A stretch of DNA of 64,000 nucleotides from Escherichia coli (GTDB lineage: Bacteria > Pseudomonadota > Gammaproteobacteria > Enterobacterales > Enterobacteriaceae), in the NCBI RefSeq assembly GCF_009931435.1, contig NZ_CP043414.1; one strand, given 5' to 3'. Within the stretch, counting starts at the first letter, position 1. Every line of letters begins with the position of its first letter. The position numbers were made by a program. Positions 34,601-37,600 of the stretch are shown piece by piece.

Positions 34601-37600
34601 CGCACGTCTTCAAAGTTATAGTGATCCAAATCAGGTTGAATTCTATACTTCGGGCCGCACTTCCAATGAAGCTGCCTTTCTTTATCAGCTTTTTGCCCGT
34701 GAATACGGTACCAATAACTTTCCCGACTGCTCAAACATGTGCCATGAACCGACCAGCGTAGGTTTGGCAGCGAGTATCGGCGTGGGTAAAGGGACCGTGT
34801 TACTGGAAGACTTTGAGAAATGCGATTTAGTCATTTGCATTGGGCATAACCCTGGTACAAACCACCCTCGCATGCTGACTTCGTTGCGCGCTTTAGTGAA
34901 ACGGGGAGCGAAAATGATTGCCATCAATCCTCTGCAGGAGCGTGGCCTGGAGCGATTTACCGCACCACAGAACCCGTTTGAAATGCTGACGAACTCCGAG
35001 ACTCAATTGGCTAGTGCTTACTATAATGTGCGCATTGGTGGCGATATGGCGTTGCTAAAGGGGATGATGCGCCTGTTAATTGAGCGCGATGATGCTGCAA
35101 GTGCTGCGGGTCGGCCCTCATTGCTGGATGACGAATTCATTCAAACGCATACCGTCGGCTTTGACGAGCTACGCCGTGACGTTCTCAATTCCGAGTGGAA
35201 AGATATCGAACGTATTTCTGGACTAAGTCAGACACAAATCGCCGAACTTGCTGATGCATATGCCGCTGCCGAACGAACCATTATCTGTTACGGAATGGGG
35301 ATCACTCAGCACGAACATGGTACCCAGAACGTACAGCAACTTGTCAATCTGCTGTTGATGAAGGGTAACATTGGCAAGCCTGGTGCGGGTATCTGCCCAC
35401 TACGTGGTCACTCTAATGTACAGGGCGACCGAACCGTCGGTATCACCGAGAAACCGTCTGCAGAGTTTCTGGCTCGCCTGGGTGAGCGCTATGGCTTCAC
35501 CCCACCTCATGCACCTGGACATGCTGCAATCGCCAGCATGCAAGCAATATGTACGGGGCAAGCTCGAGCATTGATCTGCATGGGGGGCAACTTTGCACTG
35601 GCAATGCCAGATCGGGAAGCGAGCGCTGTACCGTTAACGCAATTAGATCTGGCGGTACACGTTGCCACAAAGCTTAACCGCTCACATCTGCTGACTGCAC
35701 GGCATAGCTATATTCTGCCGGTTCTGGGACGTAGCGAGATTGACATGCAAAAAAGCGGTGCGCAGGCGGTAACCGTTGAGGATTCAATGTCAATGATTCA
35801 TGCCTCGCGTGGCGTGTTAAAACCCGCAGGTGTCATGCTGAAATCAGAGTGTGCTGTGGTCGCGGGAATCGCGCAGGCAGCGCTCCCCCAGAGCGTGGTG
35901 GCCTGGGAGCATCTGGTGGAAGATTATGATCGCATTCGCAATGACATTGAAGCTGTGCTGCCAGAGTTCGCCGACTATAACCAGCGCATCCGCCATCCTG
36001 GTGGTTTTCACCTGATAAACGCAGCTGCTGAAAGGCGCTGGCTGACGTCGTCAGGTAAGGCTAATTTTATTACCAGTAAAGGGTTGTTAGAAGATCCCTC
36101 TTCGGCGTTTAACAGTAAGCTGGTCATGGCGACAGTGCGCAGTCACGATCAGTACAATACGACGATTTATGGTATGGATGACCGCTATCGAGGGGTATTC
36201 GGTCAACGAGATGTGGTCTTCATGAGTGCTAAACAAGCTAAAGTTTGCGGTGTAAAAAACGGCGAAAGAGTTAATCTTATTGCGCTTACGCCAGACGGTA
36301 AGCGCAGCTCACGCCGCATGGATAGATTAAAAGTGGTCATTTACCCTATGGCTGACCGCTCACTGGTGACCTATTTTCCAGAATCGAATCACATGCTAAC
36401 ACTTGATAACCACGATCCATTAAGTGGCATTCCTGGCTATAAAAGTATTCCGGTTGAATTAGAACCATCAAATTAATTCGCCTCCTCATTTCTTCTGCTG
36501 TCATCCGCACAGCAGAAGAATTCCTCATTGACCATTGTCGCGCAATTTACTCACATGTGCTAAATTAAACTGCTCGCTATAAGATATATACCTCCGCCTA
36601 CAGCTGTAAGAAACTCCGCTCAGTACTGAAGCACCAGTCCTATTTCCTCTTTTTTCCAGCCTGTTATATTAAGCATACTGATTAACGATTTTTAACGTTA
36701 TCCGCTAAATAAACATATTTGAAATGCATGCGACCACAGTGAAAAACAAAATCACGCAAAGAGACAACTATAAAGAAATCATGTCTGTAATTGTGGTTGT
36801 CTTATTACTGACACTTACGTTGATAGCCATTTTTTCGGCAATTGATCAGCTGGATATTTCAGAAATGGGTCGCATTGCAAGAGATCTTACACATTTCATT
36901 ATCAATAGTTTGCAAGACTGAAAATAAACAGCAAATTATAAATATGAAATGTTAAAAAAGTATCGATAAAAACTTTATTGTTTTAAGGAGATAAAATGTC
37001 GCTCGTTTGTTCTGTTATATTTATTCATCATGCCTTCAACGCTAACATTTTAGATAAAGATTACGCCTTCTCTGACGGCGAGATCTTGATGGTAGATAAC
37101 GCTGTTCGTACGCATTTTGAACCTTATGAGCGGCATTTTAAAGAAATCGGATTTAATGAAAATACCATTAAAAAATATCTACAATGCACTAACATCCAGA
37201 CAGTGACGGTGCCTGTTCCTGCGAAGTTTTTACGTGCTTCAAATGTACCGACTGGATTGCTTAATGAAATGATTGCTTATCTCAACTCGGAAGAACGCAA
37301 TCATCATAATTTTTCAGAACTTTTGCTTTTTTCTTGCCTGTCTATTTTTGCCGCATGCAAAGGTTTCATTACACTATTAACTAACGGTGTGCTATCCGTA
37401 TCAGGGAAAGTGAGAAACATTGTCAATATGAAGCTGGCACACCCATGGAAACTAAAAGATATTTGTGATTGCCTGTATATTAGTGAAAGCCTGCTGAAGA
37501 AAAAACTAAAGCAAGAGCAAACGACATTCTCACAAATTCTTTTAGATGCCAGAATGCAACACGCAAAAAATTTGATACGCGTAGAAGGTTCAGTCAATAA

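Follow-up and report, generated by a model that had tools for sequence, protein, structure and literature searches.

What brings ydeP and the neighbouring safA-ydeO operon of Escherichia coli under common control, and does the palindrome in front of safA take part in it? At stake is the wiring of one sensor to two acid-response branches, namely glutamate-dependent acid resistance by way of YdeO and GadE, and the PhoQ/PhoP system by way of SafA. According to the original prediction, an EvgA-box-like site lies upstream of safA, closely resembles a site at ydeP, and places both units under one regulator. In order to examine this, we analysed a 64-kb stretch of E. coli chromosome (hereafter the window), which matched strain RMDEC465 at 100% identity over the query; its features are listed in Table 1. 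Co-regulation of ydeP and safA-ydeO by EvgA was supported by the orthologous box in K-12, by a check of the consensus and by the literature. We hold with high confidence that EvgA has its safA-ydeO operator at this site, where binding and activation are taken from the literature, and sequence, conservation and architecture from the present analysis.

Table 1. Features of the ydeP-safA-ydeO locus, in window coordinates
Feature	Position	Strand	Sequence	Basis or remark
EvgA box, ydeP promoter	33931-33948	+	ATCCTACACCTGTAAGAA	top-ranked matrix match
Predicted extended -10 of ydeP	33998-34006	+	TGTTAACTT	same box offset as safA
ydeP CDS	34197-36476	+		upstream EvgA-activated gene
Hairpin after ydeP	36490-36520	+		12 pairs, -17.5 kcal/mol, z = -5.3, without T-run
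18-bp EvgA box, safA-ydeO promoter	36595-36612	+	CGCCTACAGCTGTAAGAA	second-ranked matrix match and conservation
Flank of safA box	36613-36629	+	ACTCCGCTCAGTACTGA	ten-strain alignment: one variable column, C->T at 36619 in Res13
Conserved block	36636-36645	+	AGTCCTATTT	about -41 to -32
Predicted extended -10 of safA	36662-36670	+	TGTTATATT	inferred from conservation and ydeP offset
Predicted safA-ydeO transcription start	36677 (+/-2 nt)	+		inferred from paralogous ydeP promoter
safA CDS	36724-36921	+		65 aa, connector activating PhoQ
ydeO CDS	36996-37757	+		AraC-family acid-resistance regulator, second operon gene

We first consider the site itself. The predicted 16-mer, CCTACAGCTGTAAGAA, is real and occupies 36597-36612, but the start given for it, 36596, lay one base too far left, and the interval 36596-36612 comprises 17 nt, GCCTACAGCTGTAAGAA. 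The complete box is 18 bp long. It agrees at 16 of 18 positions with the 18-bp consensus TTCYTACANNTGTARGAA, which we take to be the EvgA inverted repeat (checked at the K-12 loci), and both mismatches fall on the outermost bases of its left side. The central 10 bp of the box, TACAGCTGTA, form a perfect palindrome, and 12 of the 18 positions are self-complementary. The promoter-proximal half, TGTAAGAA, is perfect, whereas the distal half is degenerate at two outer bases. A NarL-type 7-2-7 arrangement of the box was considered by eye and did not fit. From the end of the box to the ATG of safA at 36724 we counted 111 bp on the same strand, in agreement with the distance of about 110 bp that had been claimed. 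The claimed near-identity to the ydeP site held as well, the two agreeing at each of the 14 bases that the 16-mer specifies and differing at one spacer base. Over the full box, the outer left end reads AT in ydeP and CG in safA, and the spacer reads CC and GC, respectively.

We then asked how specific the consensus is. In 22 kb of K-12 sequence around evgAS it had 4 matches where 0.27 were expected, and all four fell in spacers that precede emrK/evgA, frc and yfdX. It also matched upstream of yegR, ydeP and safA, so that the K-12 intergenic regions picked by the consensus were those of frc, yfdX, emrK/evgA, yegR, ydeP and safA, and little else. A scan of the 64-kb window with a matrix built only from the K-12 boxes at frc, yfdX, emrK and yegR, neither safA nor ydeP being in the training set, ranked the ydeP box first at 21.9 bits and the safA box second at 17.1 bits, the next site reaching 10.3 bits. 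An Rfam search of 33700-37900 gave no match at E<=1.

A short, degenerate consensus may also be matched by a functionless palindrome, and shuffled DNA did yield such matches: a loose scan allowing up to 3 mismatches gave at least 2 matches in 15 of 100 shuffles, and a site of at least 17.1 bits occurred somewhere in 7 of 300 shuffled windows. The expectation for sites of that score was 0.047 per shuffled window. However, our site falls in one particular spacer, the 247 bp between ydeP and safA, for which the expectation was 1.8e-4, and a second exact copy of the 14 specified bases shared with ydeP is expected about 5e-4 times (by arithmetic, for 128 kb on a two-strand count). What decides the matter is conservation. 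Of 5,426 complete E. coli genomes, 5,376 have the ydeP-safA spacer, and it is polymorphic, because most of them are only 90-95% identical to the window over the 321-bp query. The 36-mer at 36596-36631, which begins at box position 2, was found in 5,370 of the 5,426 genomes (exact in 4,362 records, with one mismatch in 1,010), whereas the 36-mer just upstream, 36556-36591, was recovered from only 22 of 5,426 in a stricter megablast search. The box is also retained in a lineage that is 85% identical over this locus. Lack of conservation had been named in the original prediction as the observation that would speak against it, and the opposite was found. A site that is kept in this way while the adjacent DNA drifts refutes the reading as a chance palindrome, which we regard as having practically no likelihood.

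Natural variation further separates the box positions that tolerate change (1, 2 and the spacer) from those that are fixed. In an alignment of ten diverse strains, the box and the flank GCCTACAGCTGTAAGAAACTCCG were invariant except for position 1 (C or T), the sole variable box position, and the DNA upstream of the box varied heavily. All four one-mismatch genomes that were sampled carried a C->T change in the unspecified spacer, giving CAGTTG. An exception is strain 98232, in which box position 3, a consensus position, has changed from C to T. When the safA and ydeP boxes were compared in 12 E. coli-type sequences (complete genomes, strain SCPM-O-B-8794 and two E. coli-like contigs), variation was confined almost entirely to the first two positions and the spacer. 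The alignment with the K-12 safA promoter that had been suggested as a check was also carried out. The K-12 (NC_000913.3) box of b1500 (safA), TGCCTACAGCTGTAAGAA, is at the orthologous position, is identical at 17 of 18 bases and stands at the same 111 bp from the ATG, and one base differs from box to ATG. Box position 1 is C in the window and T in K-12, and the 100 bp upstream are of the minority allele found in 22 genomes. With this minority C, the window allele has two consensus mismatches in the left half of the box; the same base was found in ETEC4077, 98232 and SCPM-O-B-8794. Nothing else sets the window apart than this minority T->C change, which affects the box position under the least constraint.

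As for the regulator, the literature supports the assignment to EvgA. In 2003, reportedly in Mol Microbiol 48:699, Masuda and Church are said to have described an 18-bp inverted repeat upstream of ydeP, b1500-ydeO, yegR, emrKY/evgAS, yfdX and yfdWUVE, and to have obtained EvgA gel shifts on it. Mutations in the ydeP and b1500 repeats reportedly lowered induction, including that of ydeO, and acid resistance. Direct binding of EvgA to the safA-ydeO promoter is stated in a review (PMC9496106), regulation of the operon by phosphorylated EvgA has been described, together with the presence of evgAS in almost all sequenced E. coli (PMC5706723), and an EvgA site is known at every directly regulated gene (PMC4283999). 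The evgAS genes themselves lie outside the window. A PsafA-gfp fusion serves as a read-out of EvgS/EvgA activity (bioRxiv 10.64898/2026.05.06.723403). The safA EvgA operator is already known and ordinary, in a heavily studied regulon, and its confirmation in another strain adds little because the regulon has been textbook knowledge since 2003.

To place the box in its promoter, we compared the regions upstream of safA and ydeP, which align without gaps for about 105 nt from the start of the box. Downstream of the 18-mer, 52 of 87 positions are identical, against a background of 21.9 +/- 4.3 for all other 87-mers in the window and 43 for the next best of them; the 20 nt upstream of the two boxes match at 5 positions only. 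Because this ungapped similarity downstream of the boxes is far above background, the safA and ydeP promoters are homologous as wholes. They have in common the box core CCTACA-NN-TGTAAGAA, its orientation, the flank AAANTCCGC and the offset of the predicted extended -10. In SCPM-O-B-8794, the middle base of the extended -10s of both safA and ydeP is changed to C (TGC), and the TG is kept. We found no recognisable -35 in the safA promoter, in agreement with the expectation that an activator-dependent promoter lacks one, and a generic promoter scan returned no safA promoter. For ydeP, a generic promoter, TTGAAG-16-TATATT, was considered and set aside in favour of the extended -10, which is common to safA, is kept in SCPM-O-B-8794 and fits a leader of 178 nt. 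The ydeP leader is published as starting at -178 from the start codon (PMC11210196). This start is position 84 from the start of the box, 8 nt past the proposed -10 hexamer. The homology of the two promoters over their whole length thus predicts the safA start and places the box near -74, with its centre expected near -73.5 to -74.5. The two leaders differ in length, that of ydeP being about 184 nt and far longer than the approximately 47 nt predicted for safA.

Several elements between the safA box and the -10 are conserved: the flank ACTCCGCTCAG, a perfect 10-bp palindrome, TCAGTACTGA, at 36620-36629, and the block AGTCCTATTT. SCPM-O-B-8794 keeps the first 11 bases of the flank (36613-36623). 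The centre of the palindrome TCAGTACTGA lies 21 bp downstream of that of the box, and we speculate that the palindrome may be a secondary, low-affinity site.

The same homology allows the box to be read as a relic of promoter duplication, from ydeP to safA or the reverse, that is conserved by descent, with safA-ydeO being induced by read-through from ydeP. The clear similarity over about 105 bp is what such an origin would leave behind, the hairpin after ydeP has no T-run and was not called a terminator, and one paper writes of a 'ydeP-safA-ydeO operon' (PMC11052181). A relic would decay, however, and a comparison of the sequences showed that substitutions instead avoid the consensus positions in both copies, while SCPM-O-B-8794 has likewise retained the -10 and the blocks between it and the box. 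As to read-through, the papers treat safA-ydeO as an EvgA-dependent operon of its own, and PsafA alone serves as a reporter. The mutation of the b1500 repeat is also said, in the work of Masuda and Church from 2003, to have reduced ydeO induction. We therefore consider the combination of relic and read-through very improbable as an account of the site. Since the hairpin is without a T-run and the operon wording exists, some of the co-regulation could nevertheless come from ydeP; read-through may contribute, but it leaves the conserved safA promoter unexplained.

The hairpin itself sits between ydeP and the safA promoter, and the terminator scan made no call at 36490-36520. It consists of TTCTTCTGCTGT, a loop and ACAGCAGAAGAA, and shows no variation among ten E. 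coli strains. In SCPM-O-B-8794 the stem is identical and the loop reads ACGGATG, approximately the reverse complement of the CATCCGC of the window; judged from the sequence, this looks like an inversion of the hairpin loop.

A further reading takes the site to be mainly the operator of some other regulator, through autorepression by YdeO, repression by PhoP or the action of another NarL/FixJ protein, with EvgA acting elsewhere. Negative feedback on PsafA by both PhoP and YdeO is indeed reported in the literature. Yet the sequence fits a consensus that was checked at other EvgA targets, -74 would be an unusual place for a repressor site, and the PhoP-box-like strings are weak, with 3-4 mismatches, the best placed of them being downstream at 36679-36695. 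An operator of this kind is thus extremely unlikely, and we retain EvgA as the protein that acts at the box. The string at 36679-36695, TGATTAACGATTTTTAA, has 3 mismatches to the PhoP box KGTTTA-N5-KGTTTA and follows closely on the predicted safA start, where it overlaps a conserved block in part. As repression of safA by PhoP has been reported, the string is a weak candidate for a PhoP repressor site.

With EvgA at the box, the following course of events can be proposed. At mildly acidic pH, the kinase EvgS phosphorylates EvgA, a response regulator of the NarL/FixJ type. A dimer of EvgA would then occupy the 18-bp inverted repeat, presumably placing a single helix-turn-helix on each half-site (xxCCTACA / TGTAAGAA). 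Bound there, with the box centre about 74 bp before the predicted start, EvgA would activate a sigma-70 promoter that has the extended -10 TGTTATATT and no usable -35, and weaker EvgA contacts further downstream, between the box and the -10, may add to this in a BvgA-like manner. The output runs from safA to PhoQ/PhoP, and from ydeO to GadE and acid resistance. The ydeP and safA-ydeO units are co-induced because their promoters are paralogous and have the box in common, spaced alike in both.

BvgA is the closest homologous regulator. At the fha and ptx promoters of Bordetella, which have a weak -35, this NarL/FixJ-type protein binds as a dimer to a TTTCCTA-like heptad inverted repeat far upstream, and additional dimers occupy the DNA between there and RNA polymerase. 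The BvgA sites belong to another organism and another regulator, and that EvgA might also bind secondarily in the interval from the box to the -35 region is a guess made by analogy.

Similar features are found at the other EvgA targets. The boxes of frc (yfdW), yfdX, emrK/evgA and yegR resemble that of safA in the 18-bp consensus, in a TGTAAGAA-like promoter-proximal half and in a -10-like element about 70-77 nt from the start of the box. They differ from it in that the outer left TT is better kept, and their downstream sequences are unrelated to those of safA and ydeP except for short blocks at fixed offsets. When the K-12 promoters were anchored on their boxes, TC(C/T)(T/G) appeared at +44 to +47 in safA, ydeP, emrK, yegR, frc and yfdX, and a -10-like element at about +70 to +77 in safA, ydeP, frc, yfdX and emrK. 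In addition, frc and the proximal yfdX box have CTCTCTGATT in common at +41 to +50. We tentatively suggest, as an idea that may well not hold, a rigid design for EvgA promoters, in which the box at about -74 is followed by (A/T)(G/C)TC(C/T)(T/G) at about -41 to -36, joined in safA by the palindrome TCAGTACTGA, and by an extended -10 that replaces the -35. EvgA would nucleate at the box as BvgA does, additional and weaker protomers would contact RNA polymerase, and the safA/ydeP pair, and likewise frc/yfdX, would have arisen by promoter duplication. Part of such a design may reportedly have been described already by Itou et al. in 2009.

The divergent strain used above, SCPM-O-B-8794 (NZ_JAATUR010000028.1), is an 'E. 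coli' species representative and was found when one genome per species was scanned. Its identity to the window is 85% over ydeP-safA-ydeO, against about 93% in the flanking genes, so that the acid-response locus has diverged more than the DNA around it. The strain keeps CGCCTACAGTTGTAAGAAACTCCGCTCAG, whereas the DNA upstream has an 8-nt deletion and many substitutions, and its SafA protein is strongly diverged. In the literature, safA-ydeO is described as confined to E. coli and Shigella. In contrast to this description, SCPM-O-B-8794, which is distinct enough to be its own species representative, carries the operon.

Across one genome per species, a scan with the pattern of box plus flank revealed no other genus carrying the locus. 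A contig of the Firmicute Desulfosporosinus sp. OT has, at positions 2851-2868, a perfect 18/18 match to the EvgA consensus palindrome that carries the same AAATCCG flank. The contig shows no similarity to the window, a 19-base pattern should turn up by chance about 2 times in 298 Gb, and the match is best read as chance. Two contigs in assemblies of other organisms, JARKOR010000108.1 (a 'Candidatus Nanosynbacter' MAG) and USHE01000194.1 (UMGS1713), are 94.6% and 93.3% identical to the window, respectively, and both carry ydeP-safA-ydeO. They are E. coli DNA, present in non-E. coli assemblies as mis-binned or contaminant contigs.

Finally, the annotation of RMDEC465 allowed the content of the window upstream of ydeP to be read. 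The part read was approximately 25000-33850. The fimbrial cluster upstream of ydeP has its usher gene interrupted by an element of the IS66 family (tnpA, tnpB and tnpC). Further upstream there are many pseudogene fragments, among them those of an autotransporter, HipA and IS481.
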